Position numbers and translations under genes: made by a program
Shown here: piece by piece, positions 49,196-64,000 of the stretch
Numbering within the stretch: position 1 is the stretch's first letter
Layout: every line of letters starts with the position of its first letter
From: an uncultured Spirochaetota bacterium
Lineage (GTDB): Bacteria; Spirochaetota; Spirochaetia; SZUA-6; CAVTHK01
NCBI GenBank assembly: GCA_963734495.1
Contig: CAVTHK010000009.1
Coordinates: 224,001 to 288,000 of the forward strand
Direction: 5' to 3'
Length of the DNA: 64,000 nt
The notes under the pieces: model-generated
Told to the model about the DNA's origin: nothing
Seen by the model: only the letters and a program-made list of their open reading frames with translations
Databases searched by the model: none

Positions 49196-50832
49196 TCAGG
49201 GCCGCGCGTAGTACCTCTTGAGCTGCGCCCTCATGATCTCCTTGGCGCGATCGAGGTTCATCTTCTTGAGCGTCGCCTGGAAGTCGTCGAACTTGTCCAT
49301 CGGCTCCGCGCCCATGATGAACTTGACCATCATCTGGTCGGAGTAGGTGTTGATCTCGCTCATGAGCTTGGCGAACTCGCGGCTCTCGTCCGGGGTCGGG
49401 TAGACGGGCGGCAGCCACATCTCGTTGACGGTCTCCATCCAGAGGCCGCGGCCCTTGGGCCCGAGCTGCTCGGGGAGGCTGTCGCGCTGCTCGAGGAACT
49501 CGAGGCTCTTGATTCCGGCGGTGTCGCCGACGCGGGCGTAGACGCCGGTGGCCTGGTCGCGGGAGAGATCGGGGTTCTTCATGATGAGGTCCGAGTAGCG
49601 CGGATAGCCGTACTTCTCCAGACCGAACACAGGGTCCTTGTATCCCTGGACGCTCTTGTCCCAGTTGAACGTCTGCCCCTCGATGCCGAAGTTCGCGAGG
49701 ATGTAGCCGGCCTCGGAGTAGTCGTAGTTCAGCAGCCGGCATGCGGCCTCGACGTTCTTGGCCGCCGTCGTGATCGCGGCGCCGGAGCCGGTGAAGTCCG
49801 GGGTCATGTGGCCCAGCAGCGCCTTGTCGCCCTTCTTGAGCACCGGGTACCTCACGATGTTGATGAGGAAGTCCGGGTTCTTCGGCCGCGCGAGCCCCGT
49901 GTACCGGGTCACCTGGCCGCCCATGGCGCCTTCGAACAGGAGGACGCGGCCGTCGAGCACCTTCTCGTCGTACATCTTGGCGTTGTTGGCGGCGAACTCC
50001 GAGTCGAGCAGGCCATCCTTGAACCAGCGGTTCATCAGGACCAGGAAGTCCTTGAACTGCGGAGTCGACGGGCCGTAGACGGGCTCGTCCTTGATGTGGG
50101 TAAAGCGGGTCGAGATGCCCCAGGCGCCGATGATCTGCATGTCGGCCTGCAGCAGGTTCATCATGAAGCTGTACGGGATGAGGTCCTTGCCGCTGGAGCC
50201 CTTGAGCCCCGCTGCCTTGGCCGGCGCAGGAGCGCCTCCCACTCGTCGAGGGTCTCGAGGTTCCCCGGGAACTTGCTCACGTCGAAGCCCGGGATCTTGT
50301 TCAGAATATCCCGGCGGAGCATCGGTCCGTCGAAGTGGGCCAGGGCGGTGTCGGCGTATATCTGCGGGAACACGTACAGCGTCCCGTCGTCGAGCGTGGC
50401 CTGCCTCTTGGCAACCGGGAACTTGGCCAACGCCTTCTTGAAGTCCGGGGCCCACTTGTCGATCGGCTCGTTGAGCTTGATGATCACCTTGTCCGTGATG
50501 GACGCTGCCGGACCCCCGGGAACGGTCAGCCAGTTGTAGAAGATGATGTCCGGGAAGTTCCTGGAGGCCATCATCAGGTTGAACTGCTCCGCCTCGTTGC
50601 CCATCGCGGGTGTGAGGAAGTCGACCTGGACGTTGGTCCGCTTCTGCAGCTCGATCCAGCCGGGATGGTCCTTGAGCGAGGCCCACTTGCTGCCTGCGCG
50701 GGCGAGACCTGCCCAGTAGGTCACCTTGGCCGGCGCGCCCGTCACGGCCTTCGTCCCTTCGGTCTGCGGCGACGCGAATGCCAGCGACTCGAACAGAAGC
50801 GCCAGGCCGACGATCAGGATTGCTCTTTTCAC
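49196..50832 (-). CDS. ABC solute-binding protein (LplA-type; apparent frameshift ~50225)
   Basis: Signal VKRAILIVGLALLFESLAFA, FNLMMAS..PD, DKWAPD, NFGIEG, KFIMG.EP.DKFD. Confidence 0.88.
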
Positions 50833-50903
50833 TGCGTTCACCTCCTCGAGGGTTGTCGCCCGCGCGCGACTGCGTGGGGTCACTCTGCTCGCGGGCTCGC
50901 ACT

Positions 50904-50932: not shown

Positions 50933-51098
50933 GTTGAGTCGTGCCTCTGCGCGCCCCCCGCGGGCACTGGTGGGCCGCGGCCCTTGTGCAAAGCGGCGAG
51001 CATCGCCATTGTAACAGCGCGGCGGAACGGCACGGGGGTTCGCCGGCCGCCGTTCGCGCGACAAACGGCGCTCCATGCATCACAAAGGAGGCATCCGG

Positions 51099-52384
51099 GT
51101 GAAGAGCATCGGCAGGTACGAAGAGCCCGCCAGGGAGATCAACGTCTACGGCGAGTACGACGTCGTGGTGGTCGGAGGAGGCTGCGCGGGCTTCGCCGCG
51201 GCCGTTGCCGCGGCGCGGAACGGAGCGCGCACCCTCATCATCGAGCGCTTCCCGTTTTTCGGCGGGCACCGCGACGGCGAGCCTGATGGCCAACATCGTC
51301 GGCTTCCGCAACCAGGTGGAGCCGGACTACCTGCAGACGACAAAGGGAATCGGCGAGGAGCTGATGCTGCGGCTGCTCGCCGACGGGGCGGCAGTCAAGT
51401 CCCGCAACGCCTACCCGTCGCGGCAGCGCAGCGATACCAGGGGCGACCTCTCGTACAACTACGCGTACGACACCGAGAAGTTCAAGTTCGCGACCCTCAG
51501 GATGGTGCGCGAGGCCGGGGTGGACATCCTGTTCCACACGTACTTCGCTGCCGTGGTCAAGGACGGCGAAAGCGCGGCTGCGCGGCGTGATCGTCGAGAA
51601 CAAGTCCGGCCGCCAGGCGATCTGGGCGAAGATCGTCATCGACGCTTCCGGCGACGGCGACGTGGCATTCCAGGCAGGCGTGCCGTACTGGCACACGAAG
51701 AAGGACGAGGCGCCGCGCCTGCTCGACTGCCTCATGTACAAGATCGGCGGGCTTCCCGAGGGACACCACCGCGCCCGGATGCCTCTACGGCGACACGATG
51801 GTGGTGTGGGGCCCGAACCCCGGACCCGCCAACGCGGCCGACGCGGACGAGCTCACCGAGGAGGAGATCAAGGTGCGCCTGGCCGTCTACGACGACCTCG
51901 AGCAGAAGAAGAGCGAAGCATCCCGGATCTCGCCGGCGCCTACGTGCTCGACACCGGCACGCTGATCGGCGTCAGGCAGACGCGCTTCTTCGAGGGAGAG
52001 TACGTCCTCACGGGGGACGACGTGCTCGAGGGCCGCGAGTTCGAGGACTCGATCGCCATGGCCGCCAACCCGATCATCCACTACTACGGCTACCGCAGGT
52101 TCCTCGAGCACGAGGGGTACCAGATCCCGTACCGGGCGATCGTCCCGAAGAAGATGGACAACCTCTACGTCATCGGCCGCTGCATGTCGTCGGACCAGCG
52201 GGCCTACGAGTCGTGGCGCGCGATGGCGCACGTGTTCGCGATCGGCGAGGCCTCCGGCGTCGCCGCGGCCCTGTGCGTCAGGACGAAGCGGGACCCGCGC
52301 GGGCTCGACGTCCGGCTCCTGCAGAAGACCCTCGTGGAGCAGGGCTGCGAGATCGGGCAGGGAAAGAACAAGAAGAAGAAGTAG
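51099..52384 (+). CDS. FAD-dependent oxidoreductase (PF12831-like), copy 2 (several apparent frameshifts)
   Basis: YDVVVVGGGCAG, DASGDGDVA..AG, GVRQTR..EGEY.LT, IPYRAIVP, NL.VIGRC, GEASGVAAAL. Confidence 0.85.
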
Positions 52385-52424
52385 GCGGCGGCGGCCCGCG
52401 CCGGATATAATCAAAGGAGCCGCG

Positions 52425-53493
52425 ATGGACGACGAGACACTGGCCCTGGTCTACAAACGGGCGGGATGCCTCGAGCCGATGACCGTGCCGATCCCCCGCA
52501 TTCCGGGGCCCTCGGTGCGCGTCGAGATGAAGGCCTGCGGCATCTGCGGCAGCGACGTCAAGTACTTCCGCGGCGACAACCCCTGGGCGCTGCACACGCT
52601 CGGCCGCAACATCCCGCCGCCTCCGAACATGATCCTCGGCCACGAGGTGTCGGGCGTCGAGGCCTCCAGCGGACAGCGCCGCCGCGTGGCGATCCTCGCG
52701 TTCAAGAGCTGCGGCCGCTGCGCGGCCTGCCGCGGCGGGCGCGAGAACCTGTGCGCCGACATGGAGCACTTTGGCCACAGCGCGGGGTGGGCGAAGATGG
52801 CCTACACCCCCGGGCGGCATGTCGCGGCAGTTCGACATCTGGCAGGGCTTCGACTACGAGATCCCCGACTCGGTCTCCCACGAGGCCGCGACGTTCCTGG
52901 ACGGCCTCGCGGTTGCGGTGCACGCCGTCGAGGTGGGCGGCGTCGGGCCGGGGCACTGGGTCGGGGTCGTCGGCCTCGGGCCGATCGGGATGCTGGCAGC
53001 CCAGGCCGCGCGGGCCGCCGGCGCGGAGCGGGTCTTCGCCACGGACGTGTACGACGTTCCCGTCCGGCTGGCGGCGAGGTGGGGCTCACGAACGTCGTGT
53101 CCGCCGAGGACACCGACCCCGTCGACTACATCCGCAGCCAGACCAGGGGGCGCTCCGGCCTCGACGTGGTTTTCGACACGGTGGGAACCGAGGGCTCGAT
53201 CACCGACGGGCCTCGGCCTGCTCGCGCCGGGCGGGGCGCTGGTGCTCCTTGCGATCAGCGAGAAGCCGGTGTCGTTCGCGACCATCGCGATCAGCGGCGA
53301 GAGGCGGATCCTTTCGTCCGCCAACAATCGCTACCCGGACTTTCCGAGGGCGATCGACCTGCTCGGCCGGGGCCTGGTGCGCGTCGAGCCGCTGATCACC
53401 CACCGCTTTCGCCTCGAAGACGGCGCGAAAGCCTTTGACGTCATGCTCCGAAAAAGAGAAGAGGGAGCCTACAAGGTCGTGCTTCTGCCGTAA
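52425..53493 (+). CDS. Zn-dependent (sugar/polyol) alcohol dehydrogenase, MDR family (apparent frameshifts)
   Basis: CGICGSD, GHEVSG, CGRCAAC..G.ENLC, GLGPIG, LITHRF.L. Confidence 0.88.
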
Positions 53494-53511
53494 AGGCGGG
53501 GAGGTGTCGTC

Positions 53512-54869
53512 ATAGCCGCGGAACGGACCGACCTGAGCTCCTACCTCACTCCTCGGCAGGTCGTCTTTCTGCGCAGCCGCTCGCGGCAGGGCGCCATCCG
53601 CGAGCTGGTGCAGGCGGCCTGCCGGACGGCCCCGTCGCTCGACCCCGAGGCGACGTTCACCGCCGTGTGGGAGCGGGAGTCGGTCGTGAGCTCCTGGATC
53701 GCGCCGGGGATCGCCATGCCCCACGCGCGCCTGAAGGGGTTCTCGGGGTTCCTGCTCGTCGTGGGCCGCAGCCGTCAAGGGCGTGGACTACGAGTCGCCC
53801 GACGGCGAGCCCGTCGAGATCCTCGCGCTCATCCTCGGCAACGCGGCCGAGGTCGACCGCCACATCGAGCTGCTCGCCGAGACCGCGCGGACGCTGCGGC
53901 CGCAGGAGGCGCGGCGCAGGATCGTCGAAGCGAAGACCAAGCGTGAAGTCTGGGCGGTCATGACCTCCCAGCTCGAGGAGCCGCCCGCGCGGGCGCCCAC
54001 CGTCGACCCGTCGCGGCTCATGGTCAACCACGCCCTCTGGCTGGCGAGGGAGATCCAGGCCGGCGCGGTGATCCTGCACCTCGAGGCGACCGACGACGTC
54101 GCCGCGCTCGCCGCGGTGGAGAGCGATCTGCCGGTGATCCTCGTGGTGCAGGACGCGAGCCGGCTGCCGCCGGAGCTGCGCGGCGACCACCCCGTGCTCG
54201 AGCTGCCGCTGGCCGGCCTCACGCGGGCGAACCACGTGGCCTTCACCCTGATCGTCGCCCTGTCCCGCGGCCTCATCGACAGAACCTCCCGGGTCGTGAG
54301 CCTCTTCGGCGTCCCCGGCTCCGGCCGCCTGGACACGCTGGCCGTGATCGACGTCGCGCGGGAGTTCCCGTCGGTGTTCGCGGCGTCGCCGGCCGGCCTG
54401 CTCGGCGACGTGCGCCTCGAGGTGCTGGAGCGCGTGCTGCAGCTCGCCGCTGAGCTCGGGCCGCGAGGGCCGCGAGGGCAAGCCGGTCGGCATGCTGTTC
54501 GTCCTCGGCGACCACGACAAGGTGCGCGGGTGGACGCACCAGATGGTGATGAACCCGTTCAAGGGGTACCGCGACGAGGAAAAGAACATCCTCGACCCGA
54601 GCCTCGCCGAGACGGTCAAGGAGTTCTCGACGATCGACGGGGCTTTCCTCGTGCGCGGCGACGGCGTCATCGAGGCCGCGGGCGCGTTCCTGCGCACGGG
54701 CAAGCAGGCCGCCGAGGCGGTCCCCGGCCTCGGCGCGCGCCACGCCGCGGCCGCCGGCGTGACCGCGCGGACGGCGGCCCTCGCCGTTGCGCTGTCCCAG
54801 TCGACGGGGAGGGTGAGCCTCTTCGCTGGGGGCAAGCTCGTGATGCAGCTCGACCGGTCCGGCGGATAG
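53512..54869 (+). CDS. Fusion of PTS EIIA (Ntr/Fru-type) domain and DacZ-type diadenylate cyclase (apparent frameshifts ~53780 and ~54460; start approximate)
   Basis: ERESVVSS.IAPGIAMPHAR (EIIA phospho-His motif); EGREGKPVG.LFVLGD, NPFKGY, KEFS.IDGAF, GLGARH, SQSTG (DAC domain). Confidence 0.82.
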
Positions 54870-58809: not shown

Positions 58810-58907
58810 AATGCCGCCGCGCGCCCGTTGCCCTGCGGCATCATACGGCCGCGCGCGCCGCGCGCGCAACCGCCCGCCCGTCGCCCCGCAAACAAAAAGG
58901 AGGCCCC

Positions 58908-60663
58908 ATGCAGGTCAACCGTATCGTCCCGGCGCGCGGGCTTCGTAGCGTCCGCGAGCTCATCGAATCCTTCGAGGGAGACAAGCTCGCCCTTCCCGCC
59001 CTGGCCATGAAGCTGCCCGACGGCTCCTACTGGCGCCTGTCCTACGGCGAGTTGCAGGAGCACGTCCGCGCGCTGGGCGAGGCCCTGCTCGCGCTCGGCG
59101 TCGGCAGGGGCGACCGCATCGGCCTGATCGCGGAGAACCGCAGCGAGTGGATCATCACGTACCTCGCGGTGACCGCGACCGGCGCCGTCATCGTTCCTTT
59201 CGACGTCCTGATCAAGCCCGAGGAGCTGGCGCCGATCGTGCGCTCGAGCGGCGCGCGCATCGTCTTTACGTCGGCCTCCTACCTCGATCGCCTCGCGGAG
59301 GTCCGCAGGCTCACGGCCTCGACGGCGAAGCCGGATGCCGTGGAGAAGGTCGTGCTCTTCGACGATCCCGGGGCGGGCACGCTCCCGTTCTCGATCGCGG
59401 CGTTCCGCGACGTGATCGCCCGCGGCCGCGAGCTGCTCGCGCAGCCGGCCCCCCGCTACCGTGCGATCCGCGTGCGCGCCCGAGGACCTCGCGGCCCTCA
59501 TCTACACCTCGGGGACGACGGGGGAGCCCAAGGGGGTCATGCTTTCGCACGAGAACATCATGACCAACGCCGACGGCGTGCAGATGACCACGAAGCTCGG
59601 GCCGGGCGATAACTGGATCGTGGTGCTCCCGCTCCACCACACCTACCCGACGCTGCTCGGGCTCCTGCTGCCGCTGCTGACCTACGGCATGATCACGCCG
59701 GTCGCTTCGCTCAAGAGCAACGTGCTCGTGCAGATCATGCGCGAGACGGGCGCCACCTGCATCCCCGCGGTCCCCGCCCTGGTCGAGCGCTTCTACAAGG
59801 GCATCTGGACCGCCGTGCGCGAGAAGCCGCTGCCCGTGCGCATCGTGTTCCGGGCGCTCTTCGGCCTGAGCGCGGCGCTGCGCGCCGCAGGCATCGATGC
59901 GGGGCGGCTGCTCTTCCGCAGCGTTGCCGATCAGCTCGGCGTGAGAAAGCTGCGCTTCTTTGTCTCGGGCGGCGGGCCCATCTCGCCGCAGATCATCGAC
60001 GGCATGCAGACGCTCGGGCTCACGACCTTCCAGGGCTACGGCCTCACCGAGGCGAGCCCCGTGGTCTCCACGACCTGCCCGGGCCGGGACAAGCCGGGCA
60101 CGGTCGGGCTCACTCTCTCGAACGTCGAGCTGCGGCTCGGCGATCCCGACGCGGACGGCAACGGCGAGATCCTGGTGCGCGGGCCGAACATCATGCAGGG
60201 GTACGAAGGCAGGCCGGACCTCACCGCCGAGGTGGTGGACGCGGATGGGTGGCTCCACACCGGCGACCTCGGCGCGATCGACCGTGACGGCTACCTCACG
60301 ATCACCGGCAGGATCAAGAACCTGATCGTCACGAGCGGCGGCAAGAACATCTACCCGGAAGAGATCGAGAATGCCCTCCTCGAGAGCCCCTACATTGCCG
60401 AGGCGGTCGTGATGGGCAGGGACGACCCCGAGCATGGAGAGCAGCCGTACGCGATCGTGCACCCGAACCTGGAGGCGCTCGCCGAGGCAGCCGGCGGCAG
60501 CGCGCCCTCGGGCGATGCGCTGCGCCGCGCGCTCGCGGGCGAAGTGCGGCGCACCACGCGCGGCCTGGCTGCCTACAAGGTGCCCGTCGGCTTCGACGTG
60601 AGCCTGGAGGAGCTGCCGAAGACGTCGTCGCGCAAGGTCAAGCGGTTTATGGTCAAGAGGTAG
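58908..60663 (+). CDS. Long-chain fatty acid-CoA ligase (apparent frameshift ~59470)
   Basis: YTSGTTGEPKGV, QGYGLTE, GWLHTGDLG, GRIKNLI..GGKNIYPEEIE, LPKT. Confidence 0.92.
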
Positions 60664-63568: not shown

Positions 63569-64000
63569 CTACATCAGCGGCTTGTAGCCCATCATCTTCG
63601 GTATCCAGAGGACCAGCTCGGGCACGTAGCGTGATGAGGAAGAGCACCCCGATGAAGAGCCAGATAAAAGGCAGCATCTCCCGGATCACGTCCTTGAGGT
63701 TCGCTCCCGTCGAGGCCGCAGACGACGAACAGCAGCATCCCGAACGGCGGCGTCGAAAGCCCGATCATCATGTTCAGCACGACCACGACGCCGAAGTGAA
63801 CGAGGTCGATCCCCATCTTGTTGATCACCGGAAGGATGATCGGGATGAACACGAGCGTGATGGTGCTCGTGTCCATCAGGCAGCCGAGGATGAGGAAGAC
63901 CACGTTCATGACCAGCAGCATGACGTACTTGTTGTCCGTGATCGACAGCAGGCTGTTCGCCACGACGTCCGGGATCTTCTCGATGGCGACGATGTAGGAG
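63569..64000 (-). CDS. dctM: TRAP transporter large permease DctM, 3' part (truncated by window; apparent frameshifts)
   Basis: LILGCLMD, PIILP..MGIDLVHFG, NMMIGL.TPPFG..LF, P.LVLWIP. Confidence 0.9.

Follow-up and report, generated by a model that had tools for sequence, protein, structure and literature searches.

A three-domain gene joining an EIIA(Ntr)-like domain to a DacZ-type diadenylate cyclase, and probably split by two assembly errors, in an uncultured Spirochaetota bacterium

The gene described here encodes a candidate diadenylate cyclase carrying an N-terminal domain of the phosphoenolpyruvate (PEP)-dependent phosphotransferase system (PTS), and it was found in a stretch of 64,000 nucleotides of an uncultured Spirochaetota bacterium (assembly GCA_963734495.1, contig CAVTHK010000009.1, positions 224,001 to 288,000), hereafter the window, whose base composition is 68% G+C. 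It occupies 53512..54869 of the forward strand, from an ATA codon at 53512 to the TAG stop at 54867-54869, and comes to approximately 451 codons when read through two +1 shifts, the resulting pieces tiling intact homologs. First, frame 1 (53506-53781) matches positions 4-80 of the Pfam profile PTS_EIIA_2 with 35.6 bits (E 1.1e-8). Second, frame 2 (53780-54460) takes up the same profile at positions 82-142 (26.8 bits, E 5.6e-6) and then continues into the DacZ_P domain. Third, frame 3 (54459-54866) matches the diadenylate cyclase (DAC) profile PF02457 over positions 5-119 of 119 (75.1 bits, E 4.5e-21). A preliminary description of this DNA, made from its letters, had read these pieces as one frame of about 450 residues joining an EIIA domain, a middle alpha/beta domain and a DAC domain.

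With the middle piece as the query we retrieved 14 longer proteins (P0001-P0014, 434-462 residues), all of which have the same three Pfam domains. The closest intact homolog, P0001, is 93% identical to the middle piece, and 88% and 98% identical to the frame 1 and frame 3 pieces, respectively. On nine aligned intact homologs the three pieces abut exactly, with no gap, overlap, missing residue or internal stop, the junctions (marked by a slash) falling at GRSRQG/VDYES and AAELG/REGREG. The pieces are thus collinear from end to end with intact members of a three-domain EIIA-DacZ_P-DAC family, for which no curated single model was found. This fit goes far beyond chance, and the three pieces are one gene for a three-domain fusion. 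The first reading therefore stood: in the intact relatives EIIA and DAC are not separate genes but parts of one full-length protein, and the PTS_EIIA_2, DacZ_P and DAC profiles are all matched above their gathering scores. Three separately translated open reading frames can be ruled out as an explanation, since one break interrupts the EIIA domain and the other coincides with the opening strand of the DAC domain.

A DNA alignment with L016, the intact gene nearest to this one (82% identical), served to place the two shifts. Shift 1, which adds one base and leads from frame 1 to frame 2, lies at 53774..53782 of the forward strand, with its net +1 at ~53775; shift 2, one extra base leading from frame 2 to frame 3, lies at 54457..54462 of the same strand, within GGGCCGCGAG, and is placed at 54457. 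These are the two single-base shifts anticipated near ~53780 and ~54460, and both are +1. In a second genome of the same genus (G001) the same gene is a single frame of 472 codons that is open and without stops. A tblastn comparison of the G001 frames over a syntenic stretch of 19 kb, from which we retained 12 frames judged to be real genes, revealed, by our own count, 13 or more changes of frame, spread over six of the 12 window counterparts, between 47266 and 63999 (~17 kb), nine of them within 51084-54866. Four are in a gene for a FAD-dependent oxidoreductase (51084-52363), three in the zinc alcohol dehydrogenase gene just upstream of the cyclase gene (52401-53490), two in the cyclase gene itself, and two, one and one in three further genes (49199-50871; 58878-60657; 63572-63999, at the window end). 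The MATE and EamA genes downstream of the cyclase gene are free of frame breaks. Moreover, the third-position GC signal changes frame where the shifts lie, and the source genome, with 18 contigs, is estimated at 83% completeness vs 99% for G001. Contigs of relatives from four runs, mostly under 95% alike, were also compared at the shifts, and three of them, from three runs, bridge shift 2, each with one base fewer (X1 and X2 at 54461, X4 at 54457).

Given the single open frame in the same genus, the five neighbours that are shifted as well, and the one base fewer in relatives' contigs at shift 2, both shifts very probably reflect single bases wrongly inserted in an assembly prone to indels, rather than lesions of the organism's gene. 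Alternatively, the frameshifts would be real, the gene a pseudogene in the source strain, and the bacterial signal cyclic di-adenosine monophosphate (c-di-AMP) supplied by CdaA only. The assembled sequence does contain both extra bases, and with a second cyclase available, the CdaA-CdaR pair described below, the organism could perhaps do without the gene; in addition, no contig among those of relatives listed bridges shift 1, and no public run was found with the strain's own reads, the best containing 0.12 of the sampled words. Nevertheless, the five shifted neighbours have unrelated functions, a pattern that fits sequencing error and not selective decay, and the pieces show neither a stop nor any other lesion, at the high identity to an intact homolog given above. 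The third-position GC signal tracks the shifted frames, and the gene is intact not only in the same genus but also in 17 of 40 other related genomes, where a full-length, stop-free match was found, with one more cut by a contig end. We hence regard a pseudogene as a very remote prospect. Programmed +1 frameshifting was also considered and ruled out, as the protein is specified by a single frame in the relatives. Single-base indels are so frequent in this assembly that apparent pseudogenes in it are not to be trusted.

The EIIA(Ntr)-like domain (PTS_EIIA_2, PF00359; 53548..53965, forward strand) is split by shift 1, so that profile positions 4-80 and 82-142 are found in two frames; because the profile is contiguous across the shift, the domain continues through the break. 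In intact P0001 the same domain is matched over positions 3-142 of 144 with 71.7 bits, above the gathering score. Its best matches by sequence among solved structures are PtsN proteins (3urr, 4gqx, 1a6j and 2a0j), and in an AlphaFold model of P0001, built with alignment A2 (mean pLDDT 81, pTM 0.62), the best fold match of the EIIA part is again 1a6j, with a TM score of 0.91 normalised to the target (Foldseek). Judged by its sequence and predicted fold, the domain is of the PtsN/EIIA-Ntr type. The predicted phospho-acceptor histidine, encoded at 53722..53724 of the forward strand within GIAMPHAR, aligns with the histidine of GIAIPH in Escherichia coli IIA-Ntr (1a6j), which we take to be the site of phosphorylation.

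Conservation was assessed in a library of representative proteins, in which 318 proteins were found at E <= 1e-30. Among the best 150 of these, 84 span the whole of P0001, with a single match running from residue <=33 to >=433, and these 84 representatives form the alignment from which all counts below were taken. An EIIA domain that keeps its phospho-acceptor motif, as had been claimed from the window sequence, is also what the family shows: the site is His in 80 representatives, Gln in three and Ser in one. Of the residues around it, E49 and P63 are present in all 84, R48 in 77, and the second active-site histidine, H110, in 56. Loci with P-Q for P-H in the His loop were seen in several Chitinivibrionales, Chitinispirillaceae and Fibrobacter (L044, L048, L064, L078, L087 and L089). 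A pattern search for this loop over 80 genomic loci proved too narrow, leaving 32 without a match and eight without an anchor, and the counts based on the alignment are preferred.

The middle domain is DacZ_P (PF21755; 54017..54364, forward strand), an alpha/beta domain resembling the C-terminal domain of pyruvate kinase, matched with 38.5 bits vs a cut-off of 27.4 over positions 4-120 of 125; there is also a weak match to PK_C (E 0.044), and one to DacZ_A at only E 0.032. The P0001 model likewise matches pyruvate kinase chains, along with CdaA and DisA cyclases. The DAC domain follows at 54465..54839 (forward strand) and aligns to CdaA structures. Its DGA motif (54636-54644; DGAF, 54636-54647; forward strand) has D and G in 84 of 84 representatives and A in 80, and the RH of GLGARH (54738-54743, forward strand), here followed by Ala, is found in every representative. 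In P0001 numbering these catalytic residues are D368, G369, R402 and H403, all four of them kept throughout the alignment, as is the GxG that precedes RH. Every motif named in the preliminary description, that is, GIAMPHAR, DGA, GLGARH, EGREGKPVG and NPFKGY, is present in the sequence.

That description had also called the cyclase DacZ-like, on which the profile of haloarchaeal DacZ (NF041371) agrees: almost the whole of it, positions 16-266 of 270, aligns with the last two domains (P0001 residues 177-440). The scores are 96.4 bits for the DAC piece of the window, 122.5 for P0001 and 120 for P0004, which fall far short of the equivalog cut-off of 430; with the models for CdaS, CdaA, CdaM and DisA, in turn, the window piece obtains at most 38 bits, against 96 with NF041371. 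On this profile evidence, the last two domains are a DacZ-like body, not a DacZ ortholog. The conserved D368, G369, R402 and H403, the alignment to the DacZ profile, and the synthesis of c-di-AMP in vitro by archaeal DacZ-type enzymes, as described in the accessible text of two reports (PMC6741144; PMC12699388), all point to a DAC domain that is probably competent.

A reason to doubt this competence is found in the residue that follows RH, since the motif reads RHA vs the RHR of CdaA and DisA. If the domain were catalytically dead, the protein would be a sensor of c-di-AMP or ATP and not a synthase, a possibility that gains something from the presence of CdaA in the genome and from the NCBIfam cyclase models, matched only under their cut-offs. 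Among the 84 representatives, however, 45 have Ala at this position, 13 have Thr, eight Gln and eight Arg, so RHA is the norm of the family, this copy is not defective in that respect, and the remainder of the catalytic signature is under strict constraint. No variation is seen in RH, in the GxG ahead of it, or in the D and G of DGA, and only the residue after RH changes, which is the pattern of a tolerated position; besides, the module aligns to the DacZ profile over nearly all its length, and activity has been demonstrated for the DacZ class. A dead cyclase is therefore improbable in our opinion.

We then considered which PTS and c-di-AMP components accompany the gene in the source genome (G000). 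The PTS donors are present, namely, a canonical enzyme I (EI), a second EI-like protein, and an HPr whose gene adjoins that of a full-length HprK. Around 11-15 kb past the window end there is, in addition, a DhaM-type fusion of EIIA-man, HPr and EI beside a Dak2-domain (DhaL-like) gene (L099, contig C9, 299357-302719), which looks like a PTS-dependent dihydroxyacetone kinase system. No EIIC permease was found with PF02378, PF13303, PF03609 or PF03611 in this incomplete genome, PF13303 being a weak probe according to our controls. Five more EIIA_2 domains were detected, two of them without any other Pfam domain in their open frame. The other three (at L103, contig C9, 336600-340600; L104, contig C12, 34600-38800; and L106, contig C3, 166900-170900) comprise one in a fusion with HTH_17, one at the end of a CNNM-CBS transporter, and one directly after a P-type cation ATPase, to which it may be fused if a shift lies between the two.

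For c-di-AMP itself, a canonical CdaA (CdaA_N plus DAC) followed by a YbbR-domain, CdaR-like gene is encoded on another contig (L001, contig C16, 234288-237638), and the genome also encodes a protein containing 7TM-7TMR_HD, a domain known from PgpH-type phosphodiesterases. This cdaA gene lies downstream of a frameshifted folP, and the open frame containing YbbR also has an ACPS domain. As a whole, this picture would fit a PTS of regulatory function, with EIIA receivers incorporated into outputs for ion homeostasis, the cyclase among them.

Starting from the observed gene structure, domains, motifs, family membership and PTS donors, we consider it likely that this single gene of ~451 codons, its shifts being assembly errors, specifies a soluble protein in which an EIIA(Ntr)-like domain and DacZ_P gate a DacZ-type cyclase. 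Two ATP would be condensed to c-di-AMP where two DAC domains meet face to face. A homodimer prediction with two copies of P0001 and alignment A2 scored 0.37, short of the mark of 0.42 at which it would be read either way. Both N-terminal domains would act on the cyclase reaction: phosphorylated HPr (HPr~P), which obtains its phosphoryl group from PEP through EI and is subject to modulation by HprK, would phosphorylate the conserved histidine of EIIA, with either an activating or an inhibiting effect, and the PK_C-like domain may bind a metabolite. Thus, a PTS with no detected EIIC permease would set the output of a second source of c-di-AMP beside the membrane-bound CdaA-CdaR. It is tempting to go further and speculate that the PTS is a pure signalling phosphorelay, with EIIA receivers in the cyclase, a CNNM/CorC-type transporter, a helix-turn-helix regulator and perhaps a P-type ATPase, and that phosphorylation of the histidine switches the cyclase, but we hold this extension tentatively and at somewhat below even chances. 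Gating of the cyclase by the PTS is plausible and reasonable, but not special to this locus.

A different role for the N-terminal domain has to be weighed against phosphorylation. The gene may well be intact and its product may make c-di-AMP, with the EIIA-like domain serving as a regulatory module that binds a ligand or a protein, independently of EI and HPr. The Gln or Ser at the His site of four representatives, and the Gln of several Chitinivibrionales and Chitinispirillaceae loci, speak for such a module, and the exchanges in the four representatives show that the domain can act without being phosphorylated at that position; the limited conservation of H110 and the absence of PTS genes among conserved neighbours point in the same direction. 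Yet the histidine stands in a G-I-A-x-P-H setting both here and in 80 of the 84 representatives, E49 and P63 being invariant, and EI, HPr and HprK are encoded in the genome, where the five additional EIIA_2 domains, with no EIIC detected, point to a regulatory phosphorelay in need of acceptors. We consequently rate the binding module as unlikely, although of the alternatives discussed it is the one to be taken most seriously, and retain control through the EIIA histidine as the preferred interpretation.

Besides the RHA motif, the members that lack the histidine, and the missing reads and missing bridging contig at shift 1, three further observations weigh against this interpretation. First, no partner conserved across phyla, PTS genes included, was found in the 28 loci that were scanned, so that the gene neighbourhood offers no functional support and the flanking genes vary by lineage. 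Second, no c-di-AMP riboswitch was found in the source genome. Third, between the upstream stop (53491-53493) and a GTG at 53608 there is no in-frame ATG, GTG or TTG; hence, with no canonical start before the domain, expression may be low, or may begin at an unusual codon.

As to this start, initiation at GTG 53608 would leave the EIIA domain without its first strand and helix. The position 53512 given in the preliminary description was kept as the limit of the gene, but the codon there is ATA and not a canonical start. A Shine-Dalgarno-like GGAGG, read directly from the sequence, is located at 53500..53504 of the forward strand, 7 nucleotides before ATA 53512, and the same arrangement of GGAGG, 7 nucleotides and ATA GCC is found in G001 (L003). 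An alternative candidate is CTG at 53533, where the contig of one relative has T at 53533, that is, TTG. More distant orthologs have an ATG start three to four codons before a conserved L-x-x-Y-L, and the starts chosen by gene callers differ among P0001-P0005. These comparisons suggest a non-canonical start, ATA or CTG, in the source genus, which makes for an unusual beginning.

The family is large. In a collection of species-representative genomes, 540 stretches have a relative of the protein, and 70 of the best 80 loci span it completely, the closest named records among them being metagenome-assembled genomes (MAGs) of uncultured Spirochaetales. The titles of these best 80 loci name Spirochaetota, Kiritimatiellae, Pontiella, Planctomycetota and Verrucomicrobiota, and further Fibrobacterota, Chitinivibrionales, Hydrogenedentes and Nitrospiraceae. 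The ten shorter matches among them start at about residue 150-163 and represent two-domain forms or truncated genes. In databases the members are named 'diadenylate cyclase' or 'PTS sugar transporter subunit IIA'. The rarity that the preliminary description implied for this architecture thus did not survive, as the family is widespread across several phyla and its domains are already in databases.

The neighbourhood scan covered 111 flanking open reading frames around 28 of the best 80 loci, three more having been dropped because a simple gene caller missed the target. The gene row of the source genus is FAD-oxidoreductase, alcohol dehydrogenase, DAC, MATE and EamA. The dehydrogenase gene is followed after 18 nucleotides by the cyclase gene, and this after 8 nucleotides by the MATE gene, all on one strand; the cyclase gene is probably co-transcribed with these two flanking genes. 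In one group of Spirochaetota MAGs (L022, L027, L032, L034, L029 and L031) the cyclase gene is immediately preceded by a divergent clpS, accompanied by clpA in four of the six. Fibrobacterota and Chitinivibrionales show a conserved row of acyltransferase, DAC, PGI and UPF0047 genes (L049, L052, L057, L063, L064 and L081), and one representative of 714 residues, P0068, has acyltransferase, EIIA, DacZ_P and DAC domains in one protein. In a Pontiellaceae locus (L043) two other EIIA_2 proteins are encoded within two genes on either side of the cyclase gene, one a Zn_ribbon_9-EIIA_2 protein and the other an amino-acid permease with a C-terminal EIIA_2.

What controls diadenylate cyclase activity is largely an open question, and a cyclase that carries its own PTS receiver would allow a clean test of direct control by carbon or energy status, understood as the PEP-to-pyruvate balance and the HPr~P state. 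If phosphorylation of the histidine did switch the cyclase, this would provide the first direct connection between PEP/HPr status and c-di-AMP, and thence to ion and osmolyte balance, beside CdaA. Because the family is large and spread over Spirochaetota, Verrucomicrobiota, Kiritimatiellae, Planctomycetota, Fibrobacterota and others, many genomes could be annotated from one good biochemical study. This particular copy adds little beyond its membership. In agreement with the preliminary description, whose author knew of no biochemical characterisation, our full-text literature searches, with most subscription journals lying outside their coverage, turned up no such study of an EIIA-DacZ_P-DAC fusion. 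The architecture is nevertheless catalogued and recognised by databases, with a Pfam model for its middle domain, and the gene described here is a further member of a widespread family. A census by Galperin in 2023 reportedly sorts diadenylate cyclases into 22 families. Two bacterial classes that follow Corrigan and Gruendling 2013, DacC and DacD, appear in the portion consulted of Braun et al. (PMC6741144), where Verrucomicrobia provide the representatives of DacD, and Deltaproteobacteria and a spirochaete those of DacC. The three-domain architecture would correspond to these classes, and its spirochaete branch may fall under either name.

Comparison with three known systems places the protein more precisely. 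First, CdaA resembles it in having a DAC domain that contains DGA and RH, but CdaA has three transmembrane helices and a YbbR-type partner, CdaR, whereas the protein described here is predicted to be soluble and to receive EIIA and PK_C-like inputs. Second, PtsN, which regulates K+ transport, shares the phospho-His motif GIA-x-PH as well as the R-E pair that precedes it; however, PtsN is a free protein, while the EIIA domain is here fused in cis to its presumed target, and P0001 scores 58 bits with the PtsN equivalog model vs a cut-off of 138.7. Third, the archaeal DacZ/CdaZ (DacY) enzymes, including Haloferax volcanii DacZ, Methanocaldococcus jannaschii CdaZ and Pyrococcus yayanosii PyaDAC, have a PK_C-like N-terminal domain and a DAC domain in common with it, and both DacZ and this cyclase are soluble. 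The latter differs in being bacterial, in its extra N-terminal EIIA domain, and in its 96-122 bits vs the cut-off of 430; moreover, haloarchaeal DacZ adjoins mscS, unlike the cyclase gene here. Among these systems, the DAC domain encoded at this locus is closer to DacZ than to CdaA.

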